Shown: positions 6,458 to 63,749, numbered from the stretch's first letter. The stretch is 64,000 bases of DNA from Chiloscyllium plagiosum (GCF_004010195.1 NC_057726.1:63172467-63236466); one strand, 5' to 3'. The notes: generated from the sequence alone by a model not told the origin. A program made the numbers and translations.

Positions 6458-6623
6458 GTTAAAACTCACACAACACCAGGTTATAGTCCAGCAGGTTTAT
6501 TGGGAAGCACAAGCTTTCGGAGCGCTGAGCCTTCATCAGCTACCTGATGAAGGAGCAGCACTCCATAAGCTATTACTTACCAATAAACCTGTTGGACTAT
6601 AACCTGGTGTTGTGAGTTTTAAC
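6458..6623. mobile_element. Palindromic pair of short hammerhead-containing Penelope-derived repeats (family B)
   Basis: Two ~80-bp inverted arms around ctac; ctgatgaagg on both strands (6530-6539 minus, 6544-6553 plus). Confidence 0.8.
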
Positions 6624-7049
6624 CTACAAAGTATTTTTAAAAAAGGAAAGGAAGATTCAAATTGCAAAAGCTGAAATTAAAGTGACTTTTCACCTGCTTT
6701 GGGAGCAGAGTTCAAACCCAGCCATTTGCTGGGAAGGTGATTCTTTCTGTGTAGTGACAGGCTGCTATTTATAAAAAAAAGTCTCTATCCTGTTTTAGTG
6801 CTGGCTAGGAAGACCTCAGTAGAAGTATCATTCCCAGTGTGAGGACTCACTGAGTTGAAATCCTACTCTGCCAGCATCTTCCCCTGAAAGGGGTTCCTTG
6901 TACTTGGCACATTGCTAGGTGGTCCAGAAGTAACCTGTCAAATCTTCAGGATGCAGGGAATGGGGAGCAGTCTGTGAAGAGCCAAATACCAAAGGGCTAG
7001 GGAAGCCAAATGTTGAATGCCACGCCTCTAGGGATGGTGCCCCGCTGAG

Positions 7050-7790
7050 GGGGATAAATCAGACAGGAAGAATTTATTTAAAAAGGAGCAGACCGAAGAT
7101 TTCAGTGCCTCAGAGTAGCAGAGGGATCTGGCTGTCCTTGTGCATGAATTGTAAAGGGTTAGTTTGCAGGTACAGCAAAGCTAATCAATGCTTTCGCTTA
7201 TAGAAAAGGGAATTGAATCGAAAAGCAGAGAAATCACTTAGAAAGGGTAAGACAATATCAGTAAAACTGCTCACTTATTGAAGGATGGATGGAAAGGTGC
7301 TGGCAGCAGTTCAAGAAAGATTTACCAGACCAATACCAAGAATGTACAGGTTGCTTCCTGAGGAAAGGTTGGACAGATGAGGTTTATTATATCCACCGGA
7401 GTTTAGAAGTATCAGGGGTGAATTGATTGAAACTTAGACCATCCTGTGGGATCTTGACAGGATGAACATGGAAAGGATGTTTCCTCTTGTAGCAGTAGAA
7501 TCTAGAACCAAGGCTCACTGTTTCAATATAAGGGGTCTCCCATTTCAGACAGATGAGTTCTTTTTCCTGAGGTGAGTCTTTGGAGTTCTCTTCCTTAAAA
7601 TGCAGTGGAAGCCGAACCCTTGAATATTTTTGTGTCCAAAATATTGATAAGCAGTGGGTAGGGTGAGGGGGAGGGGTGAAATGTTATCAGAAACCTGTGG
7701 GAAATGTGGAGTAATCAGATCAGCCACGATCTTATTGAATCGCAGACCAGGCTCTGGGCCAAGTGGTCTTCTCCAACTTTTAATTTGTAT
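7050..7790 (+). mobile_element. CR1 LINE 3' fragment, degraded
   Basis: gagggatctggctgtccttgtgcatgaa; aggttggacag; gaatctagaaccaaggctcactgtttc; 3' tail cagatcagccacgatcttattgaat. Confidence 0.7.
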
Positions 7791-10479
7791 GGTGCAGTGC
7801 AGGCACTGCTTTAAAAATGCTTCCTATTCCGCAGAAAGAAAGAGCCATTACTTTGTGTGGAGGCAGTGTGGAAAATCCGACACCGGGCCTAAATATAAAG
7901 CGCTGTCTTTTGACAGCGAACTAACACAGTTCATTGGGAAGTTTGTATTTTTGAATGTTAATTTCACAGTACACTGGAATCCCTGTTGTAACTAGCTCCC
8001 AGACATGCATACCTGGGCCATGTTATAGGTGAGACCACATTTTCAAAGCCGATGCTTGATCCAGCTATGATTCCATCAGAATCAATAATGTGTGTACCTC
8101 CCAACAGTTTCCAGGCCACAGCCTCCAAAATAATTGAATAAAGTAAGTACTTTGTAAAATCAGCCAAAGAATTAAATAGCTGATTTTTTAATGTTGCTTT
8201 TAAAGTGCGTGACTGTGTTTGTAATCTTTGCAGACTGGAGGATTTTGTGTCAAAAATGGGCCTGTGATACAAAGGTCTGCATTACACCATGTTACAGCAG
8301 TGCCTTACACTCAAGTAACAGGTGATGTACTTACTGTCAAGTGGACAAAGCTATACTGACTATGATACAAGACAAACCCAGACGTCCCTCAAAGTTTCAG
8401 CATGTTATGACAACGTGCTGGATTCTGAGGAGGAGGCGCTGGAGCCCCAGGGAGATAACACTGGAACGACTGGGCCCTGGGGATGGGCCTGTTGCTGGAG
8501 GGGCCTGGACCCATGGTGGGGGGCTAGGAGTGTAGGGTATCAGGTGAGGGATTTATCTGGACAAGGTCTGCTGAGAAGGAAGGGGTACTGGAGGAAGGAG
8601 ATGGTGGCCCGAACATGATGGCATTGGGCTATCAGGTATGAGGCTGAAGCTGGTCATCTGGTAAAAGCACAGCAGCTGGCAGAATTTAAATTCAATGAAT
8701 AACTCTAGAATTGAAAAAGTAGTCTGTCATGGTGATAATGAAACTATCATCAACTGTTGTAACTATCCAGACCAGACCAGTTGACATTAATATTTGGAAA
8801 GGAGGTGTGAACTCTTTTGGAACCGACATTGTTTTGTGAGCCAGTCCTCCTGGTTAGAGCAGATCCTTTTGTATTCTGCAGTCCTTTTCACTGACATTTG
8901 GGAGCAGTGACCAATCTCTGTGGTTGTGTGTATGTGTGGACAGATGATGCCAGTGAGAGGTCTGTATTTGTGAACATAAAAGCACGGAAGGCCCCTTTGC
9001 CTGTCTGGTGTCCACATGCATTCAGCAGGCATTGCTGCCAGTTACATTGAGATTCTGCCTGAGGCAGAGCAGCTGACATTGAGGTCGACTTTAGCTCCCC
9101 CTGATGTTTCCTCTGAGTTGCAAACAACTAGCTATCTTACCAAGATCAACCTATTTTGGGTGGCTTTCTGCACCAGCAAAATTAAATCGCCCAGCATCTC
9201 CTTCAATGAAAACCACTGGCTGACAGCTAAAGAAGCATTCCCACTGATCCAGAACAGTGCAAAAAAAACTGCACGCCCTGTAACACAAGCTGGATCACAC
9301 TCTGCACCCTACAACCTAATACAGCCTACATCTTCTGATTGACTATAAACGTCATCAGTTGCATCCTGGTATCTGATCAGATCAGTGAAGTCCCAGATTT
9401 TGAACCTCCCATTCAAAATCTGAGTCACCCTCAACCATTTGCGACTTGGGCCCAGTGTAGATGTGACTCGTCGCCCGTACACTGAACTCCTGTCCTGAGA
9501 GATACAGTCCTAATGAGGTTACAACCATTCTCAACTGAACTAGCTGAAGCTGCTCAATGGACATTTCACCTCAACCTTGAGCAACAACTGCTTCCTCAGC
9601 CGGACAAAACTATAGAGGTGCAGTGTGGTGTTGCTTGTCCGATTAAACGCATTGAGTCTCCATCTCAGAAATCTTAAAGCTCCTGAACTGTTTCACAGTT
9701 ACGAGCTTTGCAAAGCACATGGCTTTATTAGTAGAGTTCAAAAAGAAGGAAGTTAAACTGACTGGTTTGGCACCAGTTGAAGTATTCTGGCTAATTCTGG
9801 GCACCACATGTTGGGGAGAATTTCAAGCCCTCGGAAATGCTGCAGAGGAGAGTAATTGATTTCCCACATCTGTGGTATAATTCTAGTAATGTGGGAAGAC
9901 TGTAGAACATGAGATTAAACTTAAAGCAGAAAAGGTTAAAGGGAGATTTCACAGAGATGCCTAAAATTCTGAGGGGTTTTGACAATAAATGAGAAGCAAC
10001 TGTTTCTAATGACAGGAGGGTTGATAGTCAGAGGGGATACAGATTTAAGGTGTAGTTTTAAAAAAAAACTAGAGGGGAGCTAAAAACCAAAAGAATAGCA
10101 GATGCTGTAAATTGGAAACACAAACAGAAATTATGTCTATGGGGAAAGGCCAGTAGAATGTGACTTGTAGAATGGCTCCTTGATAGAGCTGACAGAGATA
10201 CAATTGGCTGAATGGCTTCTTATGTGCTTCAGTTTGATTCTGCAGCTTGGTCTGAATGTGAAGTAGAGAATAAACATGAAGAGCACAGTGATTCCCTGCT
10301 TATGCTGTTGTTTCAGTAGAGTCATGTGGTCAGCTTTTGAGGGCGAGAATGTTATGGAAAATGTGGTGCCCCAGGGTAGGGGAGAAGGCTTCAGCTAACT
10401 TGCACTCCTGGAATTAAAGGAGGTGAATGTTTCCTTGATAGAGCAGTCAGTGACTGCACCATGTCATGTCACGTTGAGA

Positions 10480-11149: not shown

Positions 11150-13970
11150 CTACCAGGTACATAAGACTGTAAAAAATAGGAGCAGGAGTAGGCCATTCAG
11201 CCCCTTGACCCTGCCCTACCTTTAACAAGGGTCATGGCCGATCCAACATTCCTCATGTCCACTTTCCTACTTTTTCCCCATAACCCTTGATTCCCCGACT
11301 CAAGAACATATCTATCTCAGCGTCAAATATACACGAGGACTCTGCCCCCCACGGCTCTGGGTGCAAGCAGTTCCAAAGACACTCAACCCTCTGAGTGAAG
11401 AAATTACTCCTCATGAGTCTTAAATTGGTGCCCCTTTATTCTGAGACTGTGCTTTTGGGTCCTAGACACTCCCATGAGAGGGAAACACCCTCTCATCATT
11501 GACCCTGTCAAGTCCCTTAAGAATCCTAGAGGTTTCAGTGAGATTGTTGTCTTCTAAACTACAGTGAGTAGAGTCTCAATCTGTTTCGTCTTTGATCATA
11601 AGACAATCCCTCCGTACCTGGAATCATTTTAGTGAACCTTTCCTGAACTGTCACCAGTGAAATGGTAGCTTTTAAAAGGACCAAAACTGCTCAGTACTCC
11701 AGATCTGGTCTCACCAGCAGTACAACCTCCCTTCTCTTATATTCCAAACCCTTTGAAATAAGGATCAACAGTCCATTTGCCTTCCAGAGTACCTGCTGCA
11801 CCTGTGTGCTAGCTTTCTGTGCTTTATGTACAAGTCCATTGTGTTGCAGCTTTTTTGCAGTTTTTCTCTGTTTAAATCATACACTGTTCTTTTGTTCTCT
11901 CTTTCAAAATGAACACCTTTGCATTTTTCCACATTATATTCCATTTGCCAACTTTTTGCCCACTTACTTAACCTATCAATATCTCCATGTAAACAGTTTG
12001 AATCCCCCCATCTCAACCCTGCCTGTCCACTTGGTTTTGTGTCATCTGCAAATTTGGCTTCAAGAGTATTTGCTTCCTTTCTCATTAATGTAGGTAAACA
12101 GTTACTGTCCCAACACTGATCCCTGTGGAACCTTACTGCACACGTTGCCAACTGGAAATGGAGCCCCGTATCCCCACTAGCCATTTCCTGCTCATGAGCC
12201 AATTCTGTATCCATGCCAATATATTAACATCGTGGGCTCTTATCTTATGACCTAACCTTTTGTGTGGTACCTTTATTGATTGCTTTCTGGAAGTCCAAAT
12301 ACAACACATCTACTGGTTCCCCTCTATCCACTCTGGTTGAGACGTCTTAAAAAAACTGATGTATTAGTCAGAATCCCCCTTTCATGAAGCCATGCTGACT
12401 CTGCGAGATTGAAATAAGATTTTCCAAATGTTCTGCTATTACTTCCTTGATATTTGATCCCACTACCTTTCCAACAATAGATGTTAGGCTAATCAGTCTG
12501 TAGTTATCTGCATTTTCTCAATCTTCCCCCTCCAACTTTTTTGAATAGGAGTGGCACATTAGCAGTTTTCTAATGCTCCGATAATTCTCCAGGATCCAAG
12601 GATTTTTTGGAAAGATACAGTCGATGCATCCACTACCTCTCTAGCTACCTTATTAAGGATCCTCAGATACAACCCAACAGGGCCGGAGGCTTATCTGCCT
12701 TTAGGCCCCATTAGTTTGTCTAATACTACTTCTCTCGTGATGGTGATCGTACTTTATACCTCCCCTGTATTCTTTAGTATTAATAGAACGTTCAGAGTAT
12801 CTTCCAACATAATGACTGATGCATTAATTCCTGCCATTTCCTAGTTCCCCGAAGCTGCCTGTCCAGATTCATTTCCTAAGGAGCCCACGTTCACTTTGAC
12901 ACCTCTCTTCGTTTTTATATTCAAATAAATGCTTATTGTCAGTTTTTATATTCTTTGTTAGTTTGCTTTCATCATTTATGTTCTGTCTCTGTTATCATTT
13001 TAATCCTCAATTGCTGTATTCTCAATTTATTTAAGTATCCAGGGCTGTCACTGACTTTGACCTCCTTGGATGCTTTCCCTTTCAACTTTTAACTTCTCTG
13101 ATTAGCAATTGTTGGTTTAACCCTCTCTTAGAACCTTTCCTCCTTACTGGGATGTATTTTTGCTGAGCGTCAGGAAACACCTTCTTAAATGTCTGCTACT
13201 GGTTGCCTGCTGTTAATCCTGCTATTCTATCCACCCATTTCACTTCAGCCAACTCCATTATTATTTTATTGTAATTCATCTTATTTAAGTTCAACAGTTG
13301 TTTCCAAACCAAGTTTCTCACTCTCAAACTGAATATTAAATTCCATCGTGTTATGATTACTGCATCCTAGGATATCTTTTATTCTAAGGTCGTTTATTAA
13401 ACTTACCTCATTACCCATTACCGGATCCAAGATAGCCTGCTCCCTGGTTGGCTCCATGACATATTGCTCTTGGAAACTACCCCTGTTGCGGTCTATGAAT
13501 TTGTTGTTTTGGTTGCCCTTTCCAATTTGATTAACCCAATCAACATGAAGATTAAAGTCAGCCATAATCGTAACTTTGTTCTTTCTACATGCTGATGTTA
13601 TTCGTTGATGTATAGGCTTTCCCACAGAGTGGCTACTGCTTGGATCTGTACACTGCTCCTGCCAACATTCTTTCCCTTGCTGTTTTTGCCTCTACATCTT
13701 CTGAGCCTAGGTCATCGCTCACAATGGTCCTCATTTCATTTCTTATCAATACACTACAACATCACCTTTTCCATTCCTCCTTTCTCTTGGAAAGGTGAAA
13801 TGTCCCTGAATGTTAAGTTCCTTGTAACCATGTTTCCCTAATGGCTATGAGATCATATCCATTTACCTCAATTTGCACTGTCAGTCCATCTATCTTATTT
13901 CAAATGCTTCATTCATTAATATACAAAGCCTTTCAGTTTGTTCTGTTATTGAATTTCCCTACACTTTTAC
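11150..13970 (-). mobile_element. Long CR1 LINE ORF2 remnant (APE endonuclease + reverse transcriptase)
   Basis: 13281..13625 has endonuclease motifs (IMADFN, PTREQAILD, CSNHN); 11765..12214 has KFADDTK..DIDRLSKWAKSWQMEYNVEKC; disrupted by frameshifts. Confidence 0.9.
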
Positions 13971-15124
13971 CTAAAGCAAGGACACTCTGCCCATCATATT
14001 CGTACTGACACTTTATATTCACTTCATCCTACTTTGCTGCTTATTCACAGTAGCCCTGCATATTTATTCTTTCCTGAAAATGATCCAGTTCCCCTTTAAG
14101 TGCCTTGATTGAACTTGCCTCCACCACAGCCTCAGACATTCCATCCGGACCCTAACCACTGACTGTGCAGAAAGATTTTCCTCATGTCCCCCTTGTCTGA
14201 TTTGCTAATTCCCTTTGAACCTGGGCCATTTGGTTCATGATCTTTCCACCAATCTGATGGTCGTTGTTCGATAAATGTTGGCTAGGTGACAGGGAGACTG
14301 GAACTTGAGCTCATAACCTTTTCACTCAAAGGTCAAAAAGTTACCCAATGATATCACTCACGACTTCTCAACCTCTTCTGGTTGGGCTGGTGGGAGGAAG
14401 GAGATGTGTGGAGAATCTTGAATCTCAGCCACGTGCAATTATGCCTGGTGGGGTCTGGTATGGCTCTGCCCTTTTTTTTTGTGTAGGCCCTATCAGCTGG
14501 GTTGGCTTTCATATGGGCACTTGCTGTCCTCTCAGACCTCAGCCCGGTGATCATTCTCGTCTTGATTTCAGATTGACAGTCTACTCATCCACCCAGGCTG
14601 TTTGCAAACCCATGGCCCACATGTTAATGGATCCCTGAATACAGATGACCAGCACTGAGGTCAACTGCTACCCTCCCCAGGCTGAGATTAGTTAACTCTG
14701 CCCAGACGTGTGATTGGCCTTGACACCACCATGTCTGGCGGCTGTCATGGGCAGCCCATTAATTTGCCTTTAAGGCTGGGACTGAGGCAATCACTTGTTG
14801 GTTCCAGACAGACCAGGCTTCTGTGGGTGGCCCTGAGTGGGCTGTGCACAAGGTAGGATGGAAGGTGGAACTGAGAAGAGTCCAATTTTCCTAAAACTTA
14901 GTGTTCGTGAAGCTGAAGGAGGTTCAGAGAACGTGCAGTAAAGGGAACAAGTCGCAGAATGGATAACAAGCCGACAGGGACATTGTGATCACTCAGAGTG
15001 GCAGAAAGTGCCCCACACAGACCACCACCGACATTGCGGCTCTTTGCCACTTTCACAACATGTCTGGGATTCCGGAATCGACAGAGCAGCATCAAAGTTT
15101 GTAGATGTGTCAAATGTTTGTGCG

Positions 15125-15460
15125 GTGGGTAAATAGACAAAGTCCTTTCCCTGGGTTCAGGGAATCCAGAAGTAGAGGGCATAGATTTAGGGTGAGAGGG
15201 GAAAGATATAAAAGAGACCTAAGGGGCAGCTTTTTCACACAGAGGGTGGTGCATGTATGGAATGAGCTGCCAGAGGAAGTGGTGGAGGCTGGTACAATTG
15301 CAACATTTAGGAGACATCTGGATGGGTATATGAATAGGAAGGGTTTGGAGGGATATGGCCGGGTGCTGGCAGGTGGGACTACATTGGGTTGGGATATCGG
15401 TCGGCATGGATGGGTTGGACCGAAGGGTCTGTTTCCATGCTGTACATCTCTATGACTGTG
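15125..15460 (+). mobile_element. Young CR1/HER1 LINE 3' end
   Basis: SRSRGHRFRVRGERYKRDLRGSFFTQRVVHVWNELPEEVVEAG; tail ctgtacatctctatgact; near-identical to 23795-24140. Confidence 0.92.
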
Positions 15461-15559: not shown

Positions 15560-18500
15560 CCACATTTCTTGAAAAATGTAATGGAGAAAGGAAGGCAAGC
15601 TGGGGAGTATATCTGCACACATCACGCAAAACAATACAACTTAGTTAGGCAATTTCACGAAGCATTTATTGGGGTCGAATTGAAAGCAGAAAAGTCACTT
15701 TAAACCTGTATGAAACTTTGGTTCGATCAGTGCTTCCTTGGACTTACATTTTGAGGTATAAGGGGGCTGGAGAAATAATGAAAAGAAAGCTTTACTAGAT
15801 TAATACCAGAGCTAAGGGATCGTACTGAGCAGGAAAGATTGATCAGGCTAGGATTGTTTGTCCTCGGAAGAAGTCTGAGGGCTGAAATGATAATAGAATT
15901 CTTCATGATTATGAAGGATTTGTTGGGGGGCGGGGGGTTTGTTGGGGGGGGGGGGGGGGGGGGTGTCGGGAGGCATTTCTACTTTTTGGAGAAGATCAGA
16001 ACTAATGACGATAATTTTAAGATAGTCACAAATAATTAATAACCATGAGGAAATAGTGGTGGTAATATGACTATGTTGGTAATCCAGGGGGGTATTATAG
16101 GAAACTGGGCTCAGATCTCACCGTGACAGCTGCTCAACTTTAAGTTCAGTTAAATTACCTGGAACTCTAAAGCTAGTTTCAGTGATGGCTACCGTGTAAG
16201 CTATTTTCTAATCAACCAGTTCAGAGACGTTTTAAGTTCCTGCTAGGTATTACATAGAGCGTTACATAGAACATAGTGCAGGAACAGGCCTTTCGGCCCA
16301 TTATGTCTGTAACGGGCCATGATACCATTCTAAACTATCCCATCTACCTGCACATGGTCTGTAAACCTCTATTCCCTGCCTGTTCATGTGCCTGTGTAAA
16401 TGCCTCTTAAATGTTGCTATCGTATCTGCTTCTACTACCTCCTCTGGCAGTGTACCAGGTATCTACCACCCTGAGTGTTTTAACAAAAACATCATCTTTA
16501 AGCTTTTCCATCTGACCTTAAACCTATGTTCCCAATTATTTGACATTCCCAGCCTGGGAAAAAGACTCTGTCTATCTGCCCTATCCATGCCTCTTATAAT
16601 TCTATAGATCCCTATCAGGTTGTTCCTCATCCTCTGATGCTCTAACAAAAACCAGCCAAGTTTGTCCAACCTCTCCTTACAACCAATACAGGCACCATCC
16701 TGGTAAACCTCTTTTTCACTCTCACCAAAACTTCCGTATCCTTCCTATAGTGTGGCAATCAGACCTGTATACAGTACTCCAAATGTGGTCCAATAAAGTT
16801 TTATACAGCTGCAAAATGACTTGCCAACGTTTATACTCAGTGCCCCGACTGATGAAGGCAAGTGTGCTGTATGCTTTCTTTAACACTAATATTGCTGCTT
16901 TCAGGGACTATGGATTTCCAGCCCAAGATCCTTCCTGCATTTGACCTCCCAAAATCCATTAACTCGCATTTGTCAGGATTAAACTCCATCTGCCATTTCT
17001 CTGCTCAACTTTCCCACTATGTCCTGCTGTATCCTTTGACAATCTTTCTCACAATCAACAAGTCCACCCTTTTTCATGTCAATGTAAACTTAAGAAGACC
17101 AACTGCATTTTCATCCAAATCATTTATTTAAATATTAAACAACAGGGATTCCAGCACTGATCCTTATGGAACTCCAGTGGTCACAGACCTCCAGTCAGAA
17201 AAACACTCCTCCCCAACTACCCTCTATGACTAAGCCAATTTGTATCCAACTTACCAACTCATCATAGATCCCACGTGACTTAATCTTCTGCATCAGCCTA
17301 CCTACCATGAGGGACCTTGGGAAATGCTTCAGTAAAGTCCATGTAGACCACATCTGCTTTCCTGCCTATATCAATCAATTGCATCACTTCCTCAAAAAGC
17401 TCAATCCAATCAGTGAGACAAAACCTCCCCCCGCCCCCCCCCCCCCCCCACACAAAGCCATGCTAACTATCCCTAACAAGCCCATTCTTTTTCAAATGTG
17501 AGAAGTCTTGTCCCTCAGAAATTTCTGCAATAGTTTCTCTCCCACTGATATAAGGCTCACTGACCTTTAATTTCCTGGACTATCCCTGTTGCCCTTAAAC
17601 ACAGGAACAACGTTATCTATTCTCCAGTCTTGTGGGTCCTCGCCTGTGGCTAAAGAGGATGCACAGATCTCTGTCAAAGTCCCAGCAAGCTCCTTCCTCT
17701 GTATCCTGAAATAGATCCCAGTGGGCCGTGATGGCGTTTCATAGAATCTCTACAGTGTGGAAACAAGCCATTTGGCTCATAAAGTCCACACTGATGCTCC
17801 GAAGAGCATCCCACCCAGACCAACCCTCCCCTACCCTATCCCTGAAACACTACCCTATCCCATGGCTAACCCCCCCGTTTAGCCTCCACATCCCTGGACC
17901 CTATGGGATAATTTTGCGTGGCCAGTCCACCTAACCTGCACAACTTTGAACAGTTGGAGAAAACCCACGCAGACGTATGGAGAATGTGCAAACTCCACAC
18001 AGCCAGTCGCCCAAGGCTGGAATCAAAAACAGCTCCCTGGTGCTGTGAAGCAGCAGTGCTAACCACTGAGCTGTCGTGCTACCTTATTGTTTTTCAAGAC
18101 ACATGACACCACCACCATCTTGGTAATGATATTTCCTGAATATCAACATACCCCTTTGTAATGCTACCATCATCCATGTCCCCTTCCTTAGTAAATTACC
18201 AGTGTGAAGTATTGATTAAGAATCTCACCTACTTCCTCTGGCGCCACTCCTTTCTTTATCCTTGAGTAGACTTAACATTTCCCTAGCTATTGTCTTGCTC
18301 GTAATATATGCTTTGGAGTTCTTCTTAATTCTACTTTTGAAGGACCCTCCTTTTTAGCCGTCCTAATTCATTATTTACATTCTTTCCTGCTTCCTTTATC
18401 TCCTTCAAGGACCAAGGTGGGTCCTGAGCCCAGACTTCCTTGTCCGAATGGCCACTATGCGGCAATTGTCATGGAGATCTGCCAGGTACTAATGGCTTTT

Positions 18501-19033: not shown

Positions 19034-20600
19034 GTGAGTGTGTCTGAAAAACTCAGGAACAGAGCAAACATTTAATAATACCACTTTCTGTGTCGATATC
19101 TTCATCCCTAATCTTCTTGCACCATACTGTCTCTTCCTCTTCCCTCTTGTCTTGCCATTGTGCTAGTCTAAAGTATTGATTTCCTCTGCAGGCTCAACTA
19201 GGGTTCTCCCACTAGTTTTGGGATATCAAACCTCAGAGCTCTCAGACAGTCTTTTGTGAAATGTTGTTCTGTCTGAAACTCTGAGATTTGTTGAGTGGGT
19301 AACAGCAGTCATGTGACGAAGGGTAAATCCTCTGCTCATTTCTCAGAGTTTCATGGTTTTACGTTTTCCTCTTCAGTTAGTAGGATGACTGCCTCCTCGC
19401 CACGATTTTCAACTTCATCTGAACCATATGACCAGGGAAAAGAGGGCTTGGTGATTTTCCGTTGCTTAGCTCTTCCTTCATCTCTGCCAGTGTTGACTAG
19501 TTTTGGTGTTGATCATGGCTCATTACGGTGCCCCTGGGACCCCTATTAGGCCCAGAGAGGCTGAGAAAGAGGCAGACATGACCACTCTCTGGCATCTCAG
19601 GCTACTCCATTGTTCTCCAGTCAGACAGGAGTGATTTTTTTAAAAACTGCAGGTGTATTAAAGGGCCAGCATTTCTTTCCTAATCGTCAGTTTGTTTAAT
19701 AAAGTGAAGAGGGCCCGCTGACACCCAAATCTCACATTTACATCCTGCACTTACCCTTTGATAGGAGCTGTCAAAATGGCTGCCCATGCTGGATCACTAG
19801 GATCGAGTTAGTAGAACCAAAATGGTGAAACATTTCTAAATATGAATGAGAAGCTCCTAAAGTCTGTTCCATTGTTCAGTACGATCGTGGCTGATCTGAT
19901 TATGGCCTTAATTTCACTTTCCTGTCCACCCAATAACCTTTTGACTCCCTTGTCAGTCAGGATTTCTGAAGAAGGTTAATTCTGATTTCTCTCCACAGGT
20001 GCTGGCAGACCTGCTGAGCTTCTCCGGGAACTTCTATTATTGTCTCTTTCTCAAACTTAGCTTTTGAAATATCCTGCCTCATTGTCCTGAGGAAGAAAAT
20101 GACACAGGCATATGGCCCTCTTGAAAGGAAACATTTCTCTTAAATGGAAAATGCCTCATTTTTAAACTCTGTTTCTAGTTCTAATCTTTCTCCAGGGCAA
20201 ACATCCAATTTCCCATTCTTCTAAATTCCAATGGACACGGACTCAATCTACTCAACCTTTCCTCGTTTTCCCTCATCCCTGGAATCACTCATGTCAATGT
20301 TCTCTGAACTGCTTCTGAGATAATTTTCTTAAATGAGGAGACCAAAAGTGTACACCAGATGTGGTTGCTTCCTCTTGCAATAAAAGCCAACATTCCAAAC
20401 GTCTTCCCAATCATTTGTATCTGCATTCTCAAATAAAATACTACTGATACTGTAAATCTGAAATAAGCACTGAACATGCTGGAGAAGCTCAGCAGGTTGT
20501 GAAGAAGTCATACTGGACTCAAGCGCTAATTCTGCTGTCACCACAGATGTCGCCAGACCTGCTGGGTTTCCCCAGCATTCGCCGTGTTCTGACAGCATCT

Positions 20601-21089: not shown

Positions 21090-21565
21090 TGACAGCATCT
21101 GTGGATGGATAAATTGAGTTAATGTTTCCTATCCTGTTTAACTCCTCTTCAGAACCTTTGAGCTTCTCCAACACATTTGTGTCTGCAGATTAACCTGTTG
21201 TGACTTACAGGGCACCCCAATTCTTGTGGACCTCCGAGCTCTGTCGTCACTTTTCATTGCTTTTCGAAGCTTCTGTCAACGTAGTTAAGCTCACACTTTT
21301 ACACGTTATATTCCATCTGCTGAATTTCTGTCTGCTCAGTAAACCTGTCTCCTTTGCAGACTCCTTGTGTCCTTTTCACAAGCTACTCTCTCGCCTACCT
21401 GTGTCATCAGCAAAGAGAGCAAACATGTTTGGGCGCTTTGTCCATGCCATTGATATAAATGGTAAATAGTTGAGGACAAAGTACTGATTACTGTGGCCGT
21501 TTATTAATTACAGCTTGCCAACCCCAAAATGACCCCCTTATCCCTTATCTTTCTTTCTCTTAGCT

Positions 21566-50490: not shown

Positions 50491-50539
50491 GACCATTCAG
50501 CCCATTGAGTCAGCTCCACCTTCCAATAAAATTAAGTTA

Positions 50540-50835
50540 GATTAGATTCCCTACAGTATGGAAACAGGCCCTTCGGCCCAACAAGTCCACACCGACCCTC
50601 CGAAGAGCAACCCACCCAGACCCATTCCCCTACATTTACCCCTTCACCTAACGTTACGGACAATTTAGCATAGCTAATTCACCTCACCTGCACACCTTTG
50701 GACTGTGGGCAGAAACCGGAGCACCCGGAGGAAACCCACGCAGACACGGGGAGAATGTACAAACTCCACACAGACAGTTACCCGAGGCGGGAATTGAACC
50801 CGGGTCCCTGGTGCTGTGAGCCACCTTGCCACCCT
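50540..50835 (-). mobile_element. HE1-type SINE
   Basis: attagattccctacagtatggaaacaggcccttcggcccaacaag...gggaattgaacccgggtccctgg. Confidence 0.9.
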
Positions 50836-51954
50836 AGATTATGTGAGGTTGTGCACCTTGGCAGGACTAGAGGAGTTGAATATTATTTAAATTGAATTTA
50901 TTTATTTAAGTTGAATTTTATTTGAAATTTATTTAAGTTGAATATTATTTAAATTTGCATTTAAACTGCAGAAAGGTACAGAACAGAGGAATTTGGTGAA
51001 TTTTGCACATGGTAACCCAAAGTGCTCTGTTCTGTGGAGTTGGCTCAATGCACTAACTGGTCTACTTGCATCATACGGTCAGAAACCATTTGCTTCACTA
51101 ATGTTCTTTAGGCAGGTAAATCTACCATGCTTACCTGATTAGGCTCGCATGTCCTGGGGTCAAGTTCCAAGGAATGAAGGGGAACTATTTCCAGTTTTAA
51201 TGAAACGAAGAACTGCGATGTTGGAGATCTGAAACCAAAGCAGAAATAGCTGAATATACTCGGTAGGTCTGGCAGCATCTGTGGAGCGAGAGACAGAGTT
51301 CGAGTCCAGTGACCCTTATTCTGAAGAAAGATCATCAGAAAAGTTTTCAGACTCGGCTGGGGAATTGACTTTGATATCAAAACTGTAATTGGTGGCTATC
51401 TCATCCCTTTGCGTTTGTAGCATGCAGAAATCTTGTAATCTCAGTCATGAGCATAATCAATGACTAAGCCTCTTGGGGTACAGCATTTCAAAGATTCACC
51501 ACCTTCCTTGAAGCAATTTCTTATCATCTCAGTCCTAAATAACCTAATCCTTATTATGACATTCCACGCCTTGTGCTAGATTCTCTGAGACGAAGAAAAA
51601 GATACTTCCTGCATCTCCCCTGTCGAGCCCTGTAAGAATTTGAGGTTTCGATGCGAGTCAGTCTTCAAAACTTTTGTCTTCATCGGACAACCACAGTATT
51701 ACCAGGTTCCATTGTCCTCAAGAAGAGATTTATTAGACAAAAAACATTAACTCTATTTCTCTATCCACAGAAGTTGATAAAGCTACTATGATTCATTAGC
51801 ATTTTCTGTTTTTATTCCAGCAGCCCATTCTGATGAACCTCCACCGTACTCTCTCCATATATATCCTCACAGTACTCCAGGTGTGGTCAGGCTAAGGTTC
51901 TGTAGAATAGAATTAAGAAATCTTTACTCCTATACTCATCTTGTTACAGTAAAG

Positions 51955-52076
51955 TTAAAAATCACACAACACCAGGTTATAGTCCAACAGGTTTATTTGG
52001 AAGCACTAGCTTTCGGAGCTCTGCTCCTTCATCTCCACAACCACCTGATGAAGGACACCCCGGCATCTCCAAATCA
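51955..52076. mobile_element. Family-B hammerhead repeat with inverted stub, 13-bp TSD, inserted in CR1
   Basis: Direct repeat tgttacagtaaag at 51942-51954 and 52077-52089. Confidence 0.82.
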
Positions 52077-52103: not shown

Positions 52104-52200
52104 TGTTCTGAGGAAGAGTCACTCGATCCAAAACGTTAACTGATTTCTCTCTACAGATGCTGCCAGACCTGCTGAGCTTTCCCAGCAATTTCTGTTTTTG
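52104..52200 (+). mobile_element. Family-C short hammerhead repeat
   Basis: gtt CTGAGGA agagtc actc gatcc AAAA cgtt aac; stems I and II present, G12 lost (consistent with CpG decay). Confidence 0.75.
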
Positions 52201-52209
52201 TATACATTG

Positions 52210-52509: not shown

Positions 52510-52850
52510 CTACATGGGGAGTGCTGCAGTGTCATAGGTGTTGATCAGACAAAGTGATAATAAGAGGGGCAAACTATGTTCCCATGGGTGAATCTAAAAG
52601 TTGCCATAGCACTATTTTTGAAAAAGAGCAGAGAGAACACTGCTCTCTTTCAAAAATAGTGCAATGGCAACTTTTAAATTCACCCATGGGAGCACAGTTT
52701 TGTCCTGGCCAATATTTATCCTACAAGCAACATCAATAAAAACTAATTAACTAGTTATTATCAAATCTCTGTACCTGGAAGCTGCTGGTGTACAAATTGG
52801 CTGAGTTTTTCCATATTACAACAGAGAATACATTTCATTAAAGTTACATT
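52510..52850 (+). mobile_element. SacSINE1-like DeuSINE with an internal inverted duplication
   Basis: Deu-domain gcactatttttgaaaaagagcag and tgtcctggccaatatttatcc; tail caaattggctg..tttccatattacaacag. Confidence 0.75.
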
Positions 52851-53080: not shown

Positions 53081-54519
53081 ATTGACACAATTTCTTGTAA
53101 AATAATGATCACAAATGTGCTTTCATCATGAACTTTCTACTTAATGATGCAAGATGGTTTAGGCCACGCCTCTTGGCTCCTGGTCTCCTCAGGATGGACA
53201 CTGCTCCTGAATTAGGAGAATACCCCACACTGAGCTGGGGGTGGGGGAATCTACATGGTTCAGGGGAGATGTGTATTGAACACAGCATCACTATGTGGAC
53301 AAGCTGTGAATTGCACTCTCCCTGCCAACTCTCATATCCTGAAACATTCAATTTGTATCCTGAATCCCAAAAACCTACCAACTAGACAAATCCATCAACG
53401 ATATCCTCACCATTAATCTTTCAAGACCTTGACCGTCTTTCAAAATGTTGACCAGTTTCAATGTTCACTGAAAACGTTTTTCACTTCCTTGCTGATTTGC
53501 TCTCACTCGCCCTACTGGTCGAAGCCTTGAGTGTTCCCAAAGTAACAGGCCGCCCCATTTGTGCAAGTTCAGACAGTGGCCATTATGGTTATATTCAACC
53601 ACAAACGCATCACAATCCTGAATAATCACAACCTCACCTGAGATCTGGACACACTATCTCTCTCTCTCTGGCTGTGAACGGTACTGTTAGAAACAAACAC
53701 AGACATTCCTGGAGGAACGCAACAGGTCTGGCAGCATCTGTGGAGAGAGAATCCGCGTTAACACTGCAGGTTGACGACCTTTTCATCAGAATTGGGAAAA
53801 CTCAGAGGTAAAATAGGTTTCAAGTATGGGGTGGGTGGAAGGAGGTCTGTGATGATCTTTTTGTACACTTCATAATCTCTCACTGTCTAAGAAATGCTGG
53901 GCATTTGTTTCCTGTTCCAAACTCGATAACTTTACATGTTTTCCACATTATATCCCACCTGGTGTGTTCTTGCCCACTCACTCAGTCAGTGCGTCTAAAT
54001 CCCATTGAAGCCTCTTCAACTCTCCTTCCCACTTCATGTTATTGTCATCAGCAAACTTGGAGTTATTGTATTTGGTGCACATGTTCACACCAAATGATAT
54101 AGATGGTGACCATTTGGGACTCGAGCACTGCCCTTTGTCTCTGGTTTGCCCCCTATTCATGAGTTGCAGTCCAGACCAATCCCATACTCTCAGTCTGCTT
54201 ACTCACCTACTTTGTGGGACCTTAGTGAATACCTTTTGAGAATCCATTCGTGCGACATCTACTGGCTACCTATTTCCTATCCTAAGAATTACATTATTAA
54301 AAAGCTGCAACAGACATGTTTGACATTATTTCCCATCCTGTTGTCCATCTTATCACAGACCAAATTCTCCTCCTCTCACCCATCCCTTGCTGGAAATCTA
54401 CTTCAACCCTGGTTTTTTCCCAATTCTGATGAAAGATCGTCGACCTCTGATGTCAACTCGGTGTTGAACCCACTGCACCAATCAAAAGCAGAGTGGGGTA
54501 ATTCTCTGTGGAGCAGCGA

Positions 54520-54655
54520 GCCCTTTCCTGATGAAGGGCTTTTTCCCGAATATCGATTTTCCTGCTCCTTGGATGCTGCCTGACCTGCTGTGCTTTTCCA
54601 GCACCACTCTAATCTTGACTGTAATCTCCAGCATCTGCAGTCCTCACGTTCGCCT
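54520..54655 (+). mobile_element. Family-A short hammerhead repeat (degenerate)
   Basis: ttc CTGATGA agggctttttccc GAA tatc gatt...ggatgctgcctgacctgctgtgcttttccagcaccac. Confidence 0.75.
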
Positions 54656-57069: not shown

Positions 57070-57515
57070 AGTTGTGGGATGTGGGCATCACTAACAAGGG
57101 CAGCATTTACTGCCCATCCCTAACATCCCTTAAACTGAGAGGCTTGCAAGGCCATTTCAGAGAGCAGTTATGAGTGAACCACATTGCTGTGGGTCCGGAG
57201 TCACAGGTAGGCCACACCGGCTAAGAACCCCAGATTTCCGTAGATTACCCTTCCCTTAAGGATATTAGTGAACCAGGTGGGATTTTAGAAAAGTCAACAA
57301 TGGTTGGCATAGAGTCGAGAGTGTGTTGCTGGGAAAGCAAAACAGGTCAGGCAGCATCCAAGGAGCAGGAGAATCGGCGTTTCGGGCTAAAGCCCTTCAT
57401 CAGGAATAGGACCAGCTTTACTTTTAAATTCTGCATTTTTACTTAATTCCGTTTTAACCATCTACCATGGTGGGATTTGAACCTGTGGATCAAGTCTGAG
57501 ACTCTGGATTACCAA
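57070..57515 (-). mobile_element. tRNA-derived SINE interrupted by a family-A hammerhead repeat (57312-57407)
   Basis: SINE halves on both sides; insert reads on minus attc CTGATGA agggc ttta gccc GAAA cgcc gatt. Confidence 0.75.
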
Positions 57516-58139: not shown

Positions 58140-59610
58140 AGACAAACTAGATATATACAACTGTAAACTCAACAAAGGACCTCGAATGGTCGCACAGCAA
58201 AACGTACATGCTGCTCAATGAAGGTTCCAGGGTAATATCTATACCACCTACCACTGCCCATGACCACATGGCAACACACATTGCAGAGGCATCTATTAGA
58301 CTGGCACAAGGATGTGCAAGTGACCTGCCTCACTTTGTCCTTGTGGCTCAGTGCATCGACAGTGAGGGTCACCCAACCCACAAAAGCAATGGTCCTGTAC
58401 ACCCTGTTTCATCTCTGACACTATGTGCAACATGAAGTGACTCAAATGGATGAGTGAGCTCCTTGCAACTAGTTTTAAATGGTTTTCCCACATTAAATGT
58501 GCAGGATTCCCTCACTTCCATGAAGACCCTGTACAAGAGCTACATGTTGAGAGTGATAGCACATCCCTGTGTTCTTCTGGCAATGGCATTAACAATGTGC
58601 CATCCAAGGAAGCATTGACATTTGAACCACGGGCGGCACGGTGGCACAGTGGTTAGCACTGTTGCCTCTCAGCGCCAGAGACCCGGGTTCAATTCCCGCC
58701 TCAGGCGACTGACTGTGTAGAGTTTGCACATTCTCCCCGTGTCTGCGTGGGTTTTCTCCGGGTGCTCCGGTTTCCTCCCACAGTCCAAAAATGTGAATTG
58801 GCCACGCTAAATTGCCCGTAGTGTTAGGTGAAGGGGTGAAATGTAAGGGAATGGATCTGGGTGGGTTGCACTTCGGCGGGTCGGTGTGGACTTGTTGGGC
58901 CGAAGGGCCTGTTTCCACACTGTAAGTAATCTAATCTAATGTCATTGTAACATGGCAATCTACATATGCCACACATGTCCAAAACTGTGTACATTGAACT
59001 CATGAACTTGGTGACCCTGACAGTTGAGTGCAGTCTCAGTGATGCCACATAGGCCCAATTGGATGCCATTGCTAAGGGATATCCTGTAGACCCAGCTGTT
59101 GCTAATCTCTTCGTTAGTTACCATGGGAAACACAGTTTTGATAGAATATCCACTAACCTTCTACCCTTGCGAACACCCAATATGTATGTATTGCAGTATT
59201 CAAATCTGCAGTTATATCAAGGAATTTGTTTACAAAGCTTGATAAACACGAGAAATTGAACTCAAAATGTTACCACGGTTTCTGCCCTCACAGATTCTGT
59301 CAGAGCAGCTGAGTTTCTCCAGCACTTTCTGTTTTTATTAATAATGAACGCCATCCTATGCTCAAATCTACCATTGAGATGGGAGCAATCAAATATGCTG
59401 CCTTGCCTTGGTGTATTAATTGAGAAATCTGCCATTGGGTTTTCTGCCAATATGTCCCAAAAATCTACCTTCACTGGTCAATATATGCATTGGGATTCCT
59501 ACTCCCTACAAGATCGATCTTATTGGCAACCTCGTGAATAGGTAACCAGTCATCTGCTCACTGTGTAGACGTGATACTGAAATAGAGTATACCAAAACCA
59601 TCCTGTGTAA
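58140..59610 (+). mobile_element. Degraded Penelope-like reverse transcriptase, interrupted by an HE1 SINE and a family-C repeat
   Basis: DAIAKGYPVDPAVANLFV (resembles GVAMGSPLxPxLANIF) and EQSNMLPCLGVLIEKS..STFTGQYMHWDS (resembles LPFLDV..YRKPTFTGQY.HWDS). Confidence 0.7.
58631..58940 (+). mobile_element. Young full-length HE1-type SINE
   Basis: gggcggcacggtggcacagtggttagcac...tgtaagtaatctaatctaat; very similar to 21566-21885. Confidence 0.93.
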
Positions 59611-59639: not shown

Positions 59640-59767
59640 GGAGAAAGTGAGGTCTGCAGATGCTGGAGATCAAAGTTGAAACTTTATTGCTGGAACAGCA
59701 CAGCAGGTCAGGCAGCATCCAGGGAACAGGAGATTCGACGCTTCGGGCACAGGCCCTTCTTCAGGAA
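59640..59767 (-). mobile_element. Family-A short hammerhead repeat
   Basis: Minus strand: ttc CTGAAGA agggcc tgt gccc GAAG cgtc gaa; stem I ttc/gaa intact. Confidence 0.78.
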
Positions 59768-59830
59768 AGTGTCACACACAGACCAGCACATTCTCATTTT
59801 GGTTTAAGGTAGAACATAAGAAATAGTCAG

Positions 59831-59931
59831 AGTTGAGAGTGTGTTGCTGGAAAAGCACAGCAGGTCAGGCAGCATCCGAGGAGCAGGGAAATCGACGTTT
59901 CGGGGCCGGAGCCCTTCATCAGGAATCAGAA
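59831..59931 (-). mobile_element. Family-A short hammerhead repeat with 15-bp TSD
   Basis: Direct repeat ataagaaatagtcag at 59816-59830 and 59932-59946. Confidence 0.85.
59890..59926 (-). ncRNA. Minimal type I hammerhead ribozyme, intact core
   Basis: Minus strand: attc CTGATGA a gggc tccg gccc c GAAA c GTC gatt; full catalytic core, GUC cleavage triplet, palindromic ACGT stem III. Confidence 0.72.
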
Positions 59932-60131
59932 ATAAGAAATAGTCAGTTCAGCCCTTCAAGCCTGTCCCACCTTTCTAAAAGGTCAGAAGTCACATGACAC
60001 CAGGTTATAGTCCAACAGGTTTATTTGAAATCACAAGNNNNNNNNNNNNNNNNNNNNNNNNNNNNNNNNNNNNNNNNNNNNNNNNNNNNNNNNNNNNNNN
60101 NNNNNNNNNNNNNNNNNNNNNNNNNNNNNNN

Positions 60132-60395
60132 GCCGTGCTAAACTACCCATGGTGCCCAGGGATGAGCACGCTGGGTGGATTGGCCGTGCTAAACTACCCA
60201 TGGTGCCCAGGGATGAGCACGCTGGGTGGATTGGCCGTGCTAAATTGCCCATGGTGCCCAGGGATGAGCAGGCTGGGTGGATTAACCGTGGGAAATGCAG
60301 AGTTACAGGGATTGGGTGGGTGTGGGCGGAATGCTGTTTGGAGAGTCGGTGTGGACTTGATGGGCTGAATGGCCTGCTTCCATGCTATGATTCTT
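60132..60395 (+). repeat. HE1 SINE 3' half with a 51-bp unit repeated at least three times, next to an assembly gap
   Basis: Unit gccgtgctaaactacccatggtgcccagggatgagcacgctgggtggattg starts at 60132, 60183 and 60234. Confidence 0.88.
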
Positions 60396-60912
60396 TGTAG
60401 CTTCTTTATGTTCTCTCCACACCTCACTTCCCTCCCTAGCGTTTGTGTCATCAGCAAGTCTAGCAATCAGACCTTTGACCCCTTTATTCAAGTCATTTAT
60501 AAAAATTGCAAAAATCGGATGTGATTCCTGTGGCACATCACCTCGCCAACTTGAAAATTATATACTTATGCCATCCCTCTGTCACCTGTCAGCCTGCCAA
60601 TATGCTATCCATGCTAACATGCAACCTGCTATCCCATGGACTTTTATTTTCAACAATTGATTTGGCACCTTCTGGAATGCTCTCTGTAAATCATAAATTC
60701 AGTACATCCACCAGTGTACTCTTAGTCACAAGTGTAGCACCTCTATTCAAAAACTGAGAGGAACAGAAAGCACAAAACTATGGGTAAGGTCGTCTAATAT
60801 CTATTGTTGGAGGCGTTGGGGTAAATGCTGGAATCAATTATCAATGAAGTGCTGGTAGGATATTTAGAAATTTGTAATACAGTCAAGCAGAGTTTTGAAA
60901 AGTAATTAATCA

Positions 60913-61180
60913 TAAAATCTCTATTGTGTGGAAGTAGGCCATTCAGCCCTTTGCGTTCACACCAGCCCTCTGAAGAGCATCTTGCCCAGCCCCACCATTT
61001 TCCTTGTCCAATCCACCTAACCTGCACATCGTTGGATTGTGGGAGGAAACCAGAGCACACCCAGACAGGCACAAGGAGAACGTGCAAACTCCACACAGAC
61101 AGTCACCCGAGGCTGGAATCGAACTCAGGTCCCTGGTGTTGTGAGGTGGTAGTGCTAACCACTGAGCCACCATGTTGCCC
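60913..61180 (-). mobile_element. HE1-type SINE inside a CR1(+) fragment
   Basis: gtgcaaactccacacagacagtcacccgaggctggaatcgaac...gtgctaaccactgagccacc. Confidence 0.87.
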
Positions 61181-61469
61181 TAATCTTTGGAAATTTTTTG
61201 AGAGAGTGTTGAGGGTGTAAAAAGCAGGATGGATAAAGGTGAATCTGCAGGTGTGATGTATTTGGAGTTCCAAAAGACATTCAGTGAGGTGCAAGACAAC
61301 GGGCCATACAGCAACATGAAAGCTCTTGTCGTTGAGGATATTAGCATGGGTCAAGGGTGGTCCAGAGAACAGAGGGCTGTGATGAAATTATCATTTTCGT
61401 ATTGGCAAACTGTAACTACTTACAATCTATATCAATGACTTTGTCAGGGAACTGAATGTCTTGAAGAGA

Positions 61470-61570
61470 CAAAAAACAGAAACTGCTGGAAAAGCTCAGC
61501 AGGTCTGGCCTGCAACTGTGGAGAGAAATCAGAGTTAGTGTTTCGAGTCGAGTGACCCTGCCTCAGAATT
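61470..61570 (-). mobile_element. Family-C short hammerhead repeat (degenerate)
   Basis: aaacagaaactgctggaaaagctcagcaggtctgg..gagagaaatcagagttagtgtttcgagtcgagtgaccctgcctcagaa. Confidence 0.72.
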
Positions 61571-62154
61571 CCTGTATCGAAGCCAAGTTGGCTGATGAAG
61601 CGAAGATCGGTGGGAGTGTAAGTTGTAAGGGCAACTCAGAGGGGTGGCTTTTAAAGGGCCGCGGGATTAGAATCTGCTGATTTGAAAATCGCACTCCCAT
61701 TGGTCACCTGTGGTTACAGAAACATTGGGTATGGTTTACTATTTTCAGAGGATTGGTCAGAGGGGAGAACTGGAAATCAGATTTGCTTCCCACCCTTGGA
61801 ACTCTATGGGGCTTGTGCAGCGCAGAATGGAATTTTCCGAACAGCCTAGTACACAGCTGCTGTATTAGTTACTGAGGAAAAGGATTAGAATTAGAATTAT
61901 TGTCACATGTAGTCACATGTGTACAGTGAAACGTTCACAGGTCACCACTTGCGGCACCATCTTAGGTTCAAAGATACTTCGGTACAGATTCTGGAGTAAA
62001 AATTCTCAAGGAAAGAATTAGAAAATAAGGGAATAAAAGGTCCAGCATTACAGACCTTCAACGGTATAAAAATCGTAGGAATAAATTAGAAAAATACAGA
62101 GATACAAAGTTCAGAATAAAAGGAAACGTGTTTTAAAGTAGGGTTAACAAAAGA

Positions 62155-62267
62155 GAAAGTGAGAACTGCAGATCAGAGTCGAGAGAGCGGTGCAGGAAAA
62201 GCACAACAGGTCAGGCAGCATCTGAGGGGCACAAGAGTCAACGTTTCGGGCATAAGCCCTTCCTCAG
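62155..62267 (-). mobile_element. Family-A short hammerhead repeat
   Basis: Minus strand: CTGAGGA agggc ttat gccc GAAA c GTT; core intact, stem I apparently truncated. Confidence 0.75.
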
Positions 62268-63445
62268 TTGTGAGTCAACCGTATTGCTTTGGGTCAGAAG
62301 TCACACATAGGCCAGACCAGGTAAGGATGGCGGTTTCCTTCCCTAAAGGACGTTAGTGAACCAGATGGGTTTTCCCCAACATTTGGCAATGTNNNNNNNN
62401 NNNNNNNNNNNNNNNNNNNNNNNNNNNNNNNNNNNNNNNNNNNNNNNNNNNNNNNNNNNNNNNNNNNNNNNNNNNNNNNNNNNNNNNNNNNNNNNNNNNN
62501 NNNNNNNNNNNNNNNNNNNNNNNNNNNNNNNNNNNNNNNNNNNNNNNNNNNNNNNNNNNNNNNNNNNNNNNNNNNNNNNNNNNNNNNNNNNNNNNNNNNN
62601 NNNNNNNNNNNNNNNNNNNNNNNNNNNNNNNNNNNNNNNNNNNNNNNNNNNNNNNNNNNNNNNNNNNNNNNNNNNNNNNNNNNNNNNNNNNNNNNNNNNN
62701 NNNNNNNNNNNNNNNNNNNNNNNNNNNNNNNNNNNNNNNNNNNNNNNNNNNNNNNNNNNNNNNNNNNNNNNNNNNNNNNNNNNNNNNNNNNNNNNNNNNN
62801 NNNNNNNNNNNNNNNNNNNNNNNNNNNNNNNNNNNNNNNNNNNNNNNNNNNNNNNNNNNNNNNNNNNNNNNNNNNNNNNNNNNNNNNNNNNNCCCAAAGA
62901 CCTCATTTCAGAGTTACTGCTGTGCACCCGCGTATAAGACCATCAGTTAATTCCAGCAAGGTGCCAATTCCAATGTGACTTGGATGAACCAGAACGTGAA
63001 AGGCAGGGGTTTCCAGGGGATTTGAGGAAGGGTGTTTTCAACCAGAGGCTGGTGGGAATGTGAACGTGCACTGCCTATGAGGGTGGCTTTTAAAGGTACT
63101 GGGATAAGCTGTCGAAATGTCCTAACATCCAAGGCTGTGGGCAGGAAAGTGGAGCTGGTGTAGGTAGTGGTGTCTTTTTGGCAGTACAGGCTTTGATGGG
63201 CCAAAGGGTCTTGTGTGCTGGATGACTCTATGAACTTCTTTACCCTCATCAGACAGCCCAAGGCCTTTCACAGTAGCGTTGTCAAACAGAGTTTGACAAT
63301 GACGTGTTTCTTTACACCCAGAGAGTGGGAGACGTATGGAATGCACTGCCGGGGGTAATGGTGGAGGCCAATTCGACCGGGGGCATTTAAGGGGCTTTCA
63401 GATAAGCCACATGACCGTGCAAGGAATGGAGGGATATGGACCGAG

Positions 63446-63518
63446 TCTGGATTAGTGGTGCTAGAAGAGCACAGCAGTTCAGGCAGCATCCGAGGAGCAG
63501 TAAAATCGACGTTTTGGG
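63446..63518 (-). mobile_element. Truncated family-A repeat with 9-bp TSD inside a CR1 3' end
   Basis: Direct repeat tggaccgag at 63437-63445 and 63519-63527. Confidence 0.78.
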
Positions 63519-63749
63519 TGGACCGAGGGCAGGTGGAAGGGATCAGTTTAACTTGGCGTCATCTTCGGCAGCATCCATGCCTTTCAAGGCACAGCCACTG
63601 ATGGGGGAAGCGATCTAATTTGGTCCTGGAGCCAGAATTGGAGGAATCTCACAGGGCTGTGGGGACGGATGAGATTCCAAACACTGGGAGGGGGTGAAGC
63701 CAGGCAAGGGTTTGATCTTGGGGGTAAGTAAACTTTGAGAAGGAGCAGG

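Follow-up and report, generated by a model that had tools for sequence, protein, structure and literature searches.

The question raised by a 64,000-nucleotide stretch of the genome of the shark Chiloscyllium plagiosum (GCF_004010195.1, NC_057726.1:63172467-63236466; the whole stretch is called the window here, and positions are counted from its first letter) is what the many short non-coding repeats scattered through it are, and how they came to be there. A preliminary description, made from the sequence, had sorted them into three families, A, B and C, and had taken them for free-standing, non-autonomous, retrozyme-like units that carry a hammerhead ribozyme motif and are moved by the enzymes of Penelope-like elements (PLEs). 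Our results suggest that A, B and C likely represent 3' end modules (pseudo-long terminal repeats, pLTRs), each headed by a hammerhead, from several endonuclease-positive PLE families, mostly decayed, and that they were likely pasted in by the Penelope reverse transcriptase (RT) and endonuclease.

To recover family members, we used nhmmer profiles made from copies within the window. All 22 places listed previously were found again (9/9 for A, 3/3 for B and 10/10 for C), and the profiles picked up two more family-C members, at 51718(+) and 21088(-). Also absent from the earlier list is a fourth family, D, which lies at 20601-21089(-). About 24 insertions were counted in the 64 kb (53690 and 54423 taken as one, D included), i.e. 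roughly one per 2.7 kb, which agrees with the earlier estimate of one per 3 kb as an average but not as an even density, since 16 of them fall in the last 18 kb (46-64 kb). The profiles related the 3' halves of A and C to each other; B was without this relation.

The hammerhead motif and its decay

The motif was searched for with a descriptor of the minimal hammerhead ribozyme (min-HHR) that permitted at most one mismatch in the core and required a G10.1-C11.1 pair and three of four stem II pairs. The window gave 6 matches, while 100 dinucleotide shuffles averaged 0.03 (at most 1), and 2 versus 0 when no mismatch was permitted; a stricter descriptor (stem II of at least 4 bp and stem I of at least 2 bp) gave no perfect match and 2 with one mismatch. 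Rfam found no hammerhead family in the window at E values up to 10, which is no evidence against the motif, because these hammerheads are without helix III.

On its own strand the motif forms the 5' head of the unit, with C3 79-127 nt from the 3' end, and not its final part as had been described. The core boxes CUGANGA...GAAA...UH stand in type I order. One unpaired base follows A9 in 12/12 tabulated arms, and the 10.1-11.1 pair is G-C in 10 of these arms, G-U in 1 and A-U in 1. A palindrome at positions 15.1-16.1 (ACGU in A, C and D; AGCU in B) replaces helix III, with no helix III loop. Stem II is GGGC/GCCC in A, GGAGC/GCUCC in B, G(G/A)GUC/GA(C/U)(U/C)C in C and a stem of 7 positions in D. 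Stem I reads UC/GA in A, GUU/AAC in C, GCA/UGC in D and, from two arms read together, CAC/GUG in B, so that the 3-bp stem I first described holds for D, the C copy at 52108 and the pieced-together B, but not for two of the best A copies, which have 2 bp.

Among 9 aligned motifs (5 A, 3 C and 1 D), both sides change in 7/9 pairs, and 79% of cells are paired, versus 69% after shuffling and 17-47% in slid controls, figures that come from few and related sequences. B was excluded from this alignment because MAFFT misaligned it, and was checked by a direct table; with the table included, the earlier observation that stem II differs between families by matched changes held. A covariance model built from A, C and D recovered its 9 training copies plus those at 54522 and 54420, and found no new family in the window below an E value of 0.05.

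The min-HHR of PLEs (Cervera and De la Pena 2014, PMC4209133) is alike in its type I core, in the unpaired base between 9 and 10.1, in the G10.1-C11.1 pair, in a palindromic 15.1-16.1 for helix III and in having several families per genome with matched stem changes. It is also alike in occurring mostly as single dispersed motifs with some close opposite-strand pairs, both of which were read as probably truncated PLEs in that study. The helices here are shorter (stem II of 4-5 bp in A-C and stem I of 2-3 bp) than those of the Schistosoma families (7-8 and 4-5 bp). This anatomy, together with the joining of the same motif to a Penelope open reading frame (ORF) in family D, supports the identity first proposed, namely that the motif is the minimal type I hammerhead of PLE pLTRs, for which cleavage as dimers has been proposed. 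Searches with the A/C motif pattern gave 0 matches in metagenome contigs, and the A/C and B patterns gave 0 matches in viral contigs.

Most copies are damaged. The core is unmutated in 3/12 tabulated arms, the copy at 59922 being the sole one of these in which both stem I (2 bp) and stem II (3 bp) survive as well. In six A copies 8 of 78 core letters are changed, versus 21 of 268 letters downstream, a result that does not support the earlier suggestion of selection on the copies themselves. As judged from these sequences, the copies decay neutrally, with at most one near-complete ribozyme left, and structural selection is visible between master lineages and not in these copies. Selection on the ribozyme would have acted in the master elements, since matched stem changes are found between families and none within copies.

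That some copies have been recruited by the host as ribozymes on local transcripts is, therefore, extremely improbable. One candidate is the pair of copies at 59922 and 59764, within 59722-59935(-), where a 4-bp helix III and a 5-bp stem I could enclose the cut site of the second copy to give a double hammerhead, and 12/17 single-arm copies lie on the minus strand. However, this strand bias is not significant (p 0.14), and the active fold lies 16.1 kcal/mol above the minimum-energy fold. Dimer folds were never the minimum-energy state; their folding energies are uninformative, because nearest-neighbour energies ignore the core. Furthermore, 0 of 238 ORFs of at least 48 amino acids beyond 38.8 kb has a Pfam family (the Pfam scan of the first 38.8 kb covered 13 ORFs only), so that most copies are probably intergenic.

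Family D and the marks of insertion

Family D (20601-21089, minus strand) is a 5'-truncated copy of an autonomous-type Penelope element, in which 390 nt from the end of the endonuclease ORF are followed by a min-HHR that overlaps the stop codon, with 111 nt to the 3' end. C3 of its hammerhead is at 20712, U4 is changed to C, and the stop codon lies within stem II. The ORF (21118-20696, minus strand) is 92% identical to an RT-bearing protein of Chiloscyllium punctatum (P0001), 81% to a Hemiscyllium protein and 58-72% to Stegostoma and Rhincodon proteins, and the related proteins P0002 and P0007 (the latter from Stegostoma) read through the same hammerhead motif as D. Pfam gave no family for this ORF; the labels GIY-YIG and Penelope/Poseidon are our assumption from the YIG motif and the domain order. 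A Penelope protein profile run over the six frames of the window found only D. D is a min-HHR module joined directly to a Penelope ORF, and it serves as a positive control. The element is flanked by an exact 11-bp target duplication (20590-20600 and 21090-21100).

The region 20430-21185 holds three nested insertions: D lies within a family-C copy, flanked by its 11-bp duplication, and immediately adjoins another C insertion, which is palindromic.

Of the 12 insertions tested, 6 are framed by exact repeats of 9-15 bp, while a control of random pairs gave 9 bp in 3/1000 and none longer. With one mismatch, flanking repeats of at least 15 bp occurred at 4/22 insertions versus 0/300 in the background. 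The exact repeats indicate that the units went in at their present size and were not cut down by deletions afterwards. Head-to-head pairing is seen in six cases: five of these form hairpins when folded (z -3.0 to -17.4), while a fragment of a long interspersed nuclear element (LINE) interrupts the sixth. An optional tail of 30-40 bp occurs, and in the pairs at 6418, 51955, 34045 and 20430 it is 35-40 bp long and restricted to one arm. The 3' ends fall in two groups, at 79-98 and 111-127 nt from C3; in A, B and C the spacing is 79-98 nt without the tail and 120-127 nt with it, and D matches this layout with its 111 nt. Internal deletions across the hammerhead occur in five arms (34095, 52046, 19966, 27692 and 51325).

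Head-to-head inverted 5'-truncated copies, a tail at one end and target duplications are marks of endonuclease-positive PLEs (PMC3846280; PMC8557442; PMC8969392), and the insertions described by Arkhipova et al. 2013 (PMC3846280) and Craig et al. 2021 (PMC8557442) resemble those of the window in strong 5' truncation, an adjacent inverted copy, head-to-head junctions, a 30-40-bp tail at one end, target duplications and solo pLTRs. The target duplications, inversions and tails found here thus sustain the earlier proposal of mobilisation by PLE enzymes. Two features differ from the published insertions: most units here are the end module alone, and they stand at about one per 2.7 kb. The duplications (9-15 bp) are also slightly longer than the 8-10 bp quoted for Adineta. 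Nowhere in the window do two pLTRs enclose a full ORF as a partial tandem.

These marks also bear on whether the units are miniature inverted-repeat transposable elements (MITEs) or DNA-transposon terminal repeats in which the likeness to a hammerhead is incidental. Five insertions are indeed palindromic. However, most are single arms, the paired arms are unequal with the tail on one side, the duplications vary in length, and the motif is far above chance, has matched pair changes and in D is joined to a retroelement ORF. The variable duplication length and family D largely refute this explanation and leave it barely tenable; the units are not the ordinary MITE terminal repeats that the preliminary description had named as an outcome contrary to its proposal.

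Where the copies begin

Among 10 A arms, seven or eight begin no more than ~5 nt from C3, two others start at +16 and +17, and none was shown to start further upstream; a rough binomial with hand-set zones gives p ~1e-5 for this pile-up of 5' ends at the A hammerhead. Tail-only stubs were not found in the window. In the other families some arms run further: C arms 53789 and 54426 have 56 nt upstream of the core in common (score 56 versus a background maximum of 18, n=1000), and B arm 52046 keeps ~11 nt upstream in common with an exonised copy in P0026, a ZNRF1 isoform of C. plagiosum, the upstream peptide PQPPDEG occurring in both. Two A pairs that a lenient local alignment aligned over 36-40 nt upstream were not counted, their anchored score being 10 versus a background 99th percentile of 12.

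The position of most 5' ends at the hammerhead edge suggests either a short template RNA or a stop of the RT. In the mechanism that we propose, the endonuclease would nick the target, target-primed reverse transcription would begin at the 3' end of the pLTR and run past the uncut cleavage site, and cDNA synthesis would mostly stop at the upstream edge of the hammerhead, with the inversion and the tail arising during insertion. Random truncation would be the less likely cause of a stop at this edge; more probably the copied RNA begins there, either because transcription starts within the pLTR or because of a jump to the 5' pLTR. Since the copies span the cut site, the template was not a cleavage product ending there. 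The alternative to a template start would be a stall of the RT at the hammerhead, and the five arms with internal deletions across it would fit skipping over a structure. Single copies are likely inert, because they lack a partner copy and mutations have reached most cores; inverted pairs, for their part, would form long hairpins. Min-HHRs have no stable helix III. Where one transcript contains two pLTR hammerheads, these have been proposed to pair by their palindromes and to cut weakly as dimers, with an in vivo role that is unproven (PMC4209133; PMC6765202).

Several results weigh against the assignment of A, B and C to PLE end modules. No trace of a Penelope ORF was found upstream of A, B or C in the window. 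When the read-through peptides of A and B were compared with proteins, no RT-bearing match was obtained (6 among 2837 candidates; 2; 4 among 156; C was not so searched), although this search misses any ORF that ends before the motif and is weak evidence. Among 7 A copies no pair shared upstream sequence above background, a comparison in which one unique longer A copy would not be recognisable without a partner copy. No target duplication of at least 9 bp was present at 6 of the 12 insertions tested. Finally, the B hammerheads were not picked up at E values up to 3 by the covariance model built from the other three families, so that their assignment depends on the direct table. Read through, A and B gave peptides that matched exonised copies in isoforms of FUBP3, BTBD6 and ZNRF1, as well as unnamed proteins and repeat proteins of no relation; both families look exonised in predicted FUBP3, BTBD6 and ZNRF1 isoforms of Chiloscyllium and Hemiscyllium (P0018, P0019, P0022 and P0026).

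Rather unlikely, but deserving of weight, is the hypothesis that A, B and C are independent non-autonomous families resembling short interspersed nuclear elements (SINEs), each with its own master loci, from which an RNA of 100-130 nt, beginning a little upstream of the hammerhead, would be made and then copied in trans by Penelope enzymes. The pile-up of A 5' ends, the lack of tail-only stubs, the target duplications, as marks of insertion at this size, and the failure to find an ORF partner for A or B all fit it, as does P0018 (FUBP3 of C. plagiosum), an exonised A copy of the same size as the units in the window, with a 5-residue repeat flanking the insert as a target duplication would. Precedents are the putatively non-autonomous Chlamys elements (PMC8557442) and the short non-autonomous Penelope elements of butterflies (PMC6685494). 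However, the C pair and one B arm run upstream, D has the same module on an ORF, 6 copies scanned had no Pol III B box, there are no tandem copies to supply a promoter and a ribozyme partner, and an uncut hammerhead at its head is of no evident use to a lone short RNA. The earlier term "free-standing non-autonomous" is unproven: the sharp pile-up and the failure to find a coding partner speak for it, and the 390 nt of ORF in D, the ~56 nt upstream in the C pair and the ~11 nt in B speak against it.

The PLE end-module assignment and the independent families would converge if autonomous elements shed an RNA consisting of the pLTR only. It is possible, though doubtful, that the 5' stop marks the true start of such a hammerhead-headed RNA of 100-130 nt, retrotransposed far more often than the full element; it could arise by short pLTR transcription, by cutting and rejoining within a double hammerhead, or by a template jump between paired pLTRs. 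If true, this would define a promoterless SINE-like class and would provide a genomic record of ribozyme use in the unresolved Penelope replication cycle.

The term "retrozyme-like" fared less well. Non-LTR retrozymes (Cervera and De la Pena 2020, PMC7229834; Li, Clavereau and Pollet 2026, 10.64898/2026.07.22.740005) are likewise non-coding, pLTR-related and equipped with a type I hammerhead, with a supposed dependence on PLE enzymes, and the 2026 preprint reports pLTR-related retrozymes, dispersed monomers and one positive chondrichthyan genome. Nevertheless, it is very unlikely that the units are retrozymes or their monomers, spreading via self-cleaved circular RNAs. Retrozymes form head-to-tail arrays with working hammerheads and circular RNAs, while the units here are single or head-to-head and their hammerheads are mostly broken; none of 16 rows from Tandem Repeats Finder was a head-to-tail array of them, and the neighbours at 59764 and 59922 are separate insertions. 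In addition, these hammerheads are minimal rather than canonical with loop 1-loop 2 contacts as in PMC7229834, the units measure 80-130 nt versus 150-450 bp in the same source, and their ends lie off the cut site, which the copies span by starting ~30 nt before it.

Altogether, the finding is real but largely ordinary: a known kind, to which a shark with at least four co-existing families is added. The kind itself adds little: dispersed min-HHRs from truncated PLEs have been known since 2014 in fishes, coelacanth, frog and reptiles (PMC4209133), and the insertion marks since 2013 and 2021. An intronic Penelope expansion has been reported in the whale shark (10.1101/443036). No mention of sharks was found in the available text of PMC4209133 or in two of its supplement files, nor does that text appear to describe a 5'-end pile-up at the hammerhead as seen here. 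By title and the start of the abstract, we found no literature on shark hammerhead families or on such a pile-up, although the 2026 preprint did survey one chondrichthyan. The value lies in the breakpoints: mapped across the genome, the starts and ends of copies report at little cost on the RNA template of Penelope, and could be used to test whether this template is set by the hammerhead.

The individual copies and their surroundings

The best-kept min-HHR of the window belongs to a tail-less A copy at 59831-59931(-), with C3 at 59922, an intact core, 3 bp of stem II, 2 bp of stem I and a 15-bp target duplication. A tailed A copy at 59640-59767(-) (C3 59764, A15.1 changed to G) stands 158 nt away on the same strand, an accidental near-tandem. 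The tail-less copy at 57310-57407(-) has C3 at 57403 and U16.1 changed to C; that at 62153-62267(-), with a partly deleted tail, has an intact core but begins at C3 and hence has no stem I. Cores are broken in a tailed copy with a short extra 5'-side stub and a 13-bp target duplication (54512-54655, plus) and in a tail-less copy in an intron of the E2F-family gene described below (29670-29757, minus). The head-to-head A pair at 34045-34227 (both strands; hairpin z -12.0) has a tail only on its plus arm, and its minus arm is internally deleted across the hammerhead. The remaining A copies are truncated at ~+16, with a small inverted stub of stem II (49184-49290, minus), and at ~+17, with a 9-bp target duplication (63446-63518, minus).

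Family B comprises two head-to-head pairs, each on both strands, and one partial copy. In the pair at 6418-6623 (z -17.4) a tail of ~40 bp is present only on the minus arm, which has an intact core and broken stems, and the core of the plus arm is broken. In that at 51955-52076, flanked by a 13-bp target duplication, the plus arm is deleted from the hammerhead to the tail and keeps ~11 nt upstream of the core. The third place (59981 in the earlier list) was matched by the profile as a B 3' part at 59984-60037(-), but its head falls in an N gap.

Tail-less C copies lie at 52105-52201(+), with C3 at 52108 and G12 changed to A, and at 61470-61570(-), with a broken core. A variant with stem II AGGUC/GACCU at 53691-53845(-) retains ~56 nt upstream of the core and forms the left arm of a head-to-head pair, the right arm of which (54369-54464, plus) is inverted and 78% identical over 79 nt. 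The C places listed at 53690 and 54423 are thus both real, but probably are two arms of one insertion. A LINE fragment at 53850-54370 separates these arms.

A tail is present on the C copy at 51203-51345(-), whose hammerhead is internally deleted and which bears a short inverted stub, and on that at 27579-27692(-), which has a partly deleted hammerhead and lies in an intron of the E2F-family gene. Two further C insertions are head-to-head pairs on both strands: a degenerate one at 46236-46434, with a 13-bp target duplication, and one at 20430-20589, with a tail on one arm. The arm at 21101-21185(-), which has an inverted stub and is interrupted by family D, and an old, degenerate copy at 51716-51815(+) had both been missed. 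The copy at 19964-20043(+), a profile match, has lost stem II, and the degenerate one at 59250-59338(+), previously listed at 59260, has no recognisable hammerhead.

The E2F-family gene has exons at 25378 and 27034 on the plus strand, with a match to Pfam E2F_CC-MB that scored under the curated cut-off. We take the gene, at 25378-38700(+), to be E2F4-like, with its last exon presumably near 38.6 kb, as a translation suggests. Its introns hold three of the insertions, the two single-arm ones being antisense. A second common dispersed repeat of ~300 bp, presumably of the shark HE1/V-SINE type, is found at 4818-5150, 17726-18092, 21567-21880, 29156-29450, 50527-50863, 58640-58950 and 60897-61188. 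Broken LINE pieces with RT or endonuclease remnants, which we assume to be CR1-like, occur at 11765-13691, 15105-15455, 53850-54370 and other places (weak Pfam matches).

An AT-rich, near-perfect palindrome of ~100 bp at 52584-52683 has no relation to the hammerhead families and is possibly a small MITE. At 60132-60290, beside an N gap, a 51-bp unit derived from the ~300-bp SINE-like repeat is present in 3.1 tandem copies, possibly an assembly artefact.

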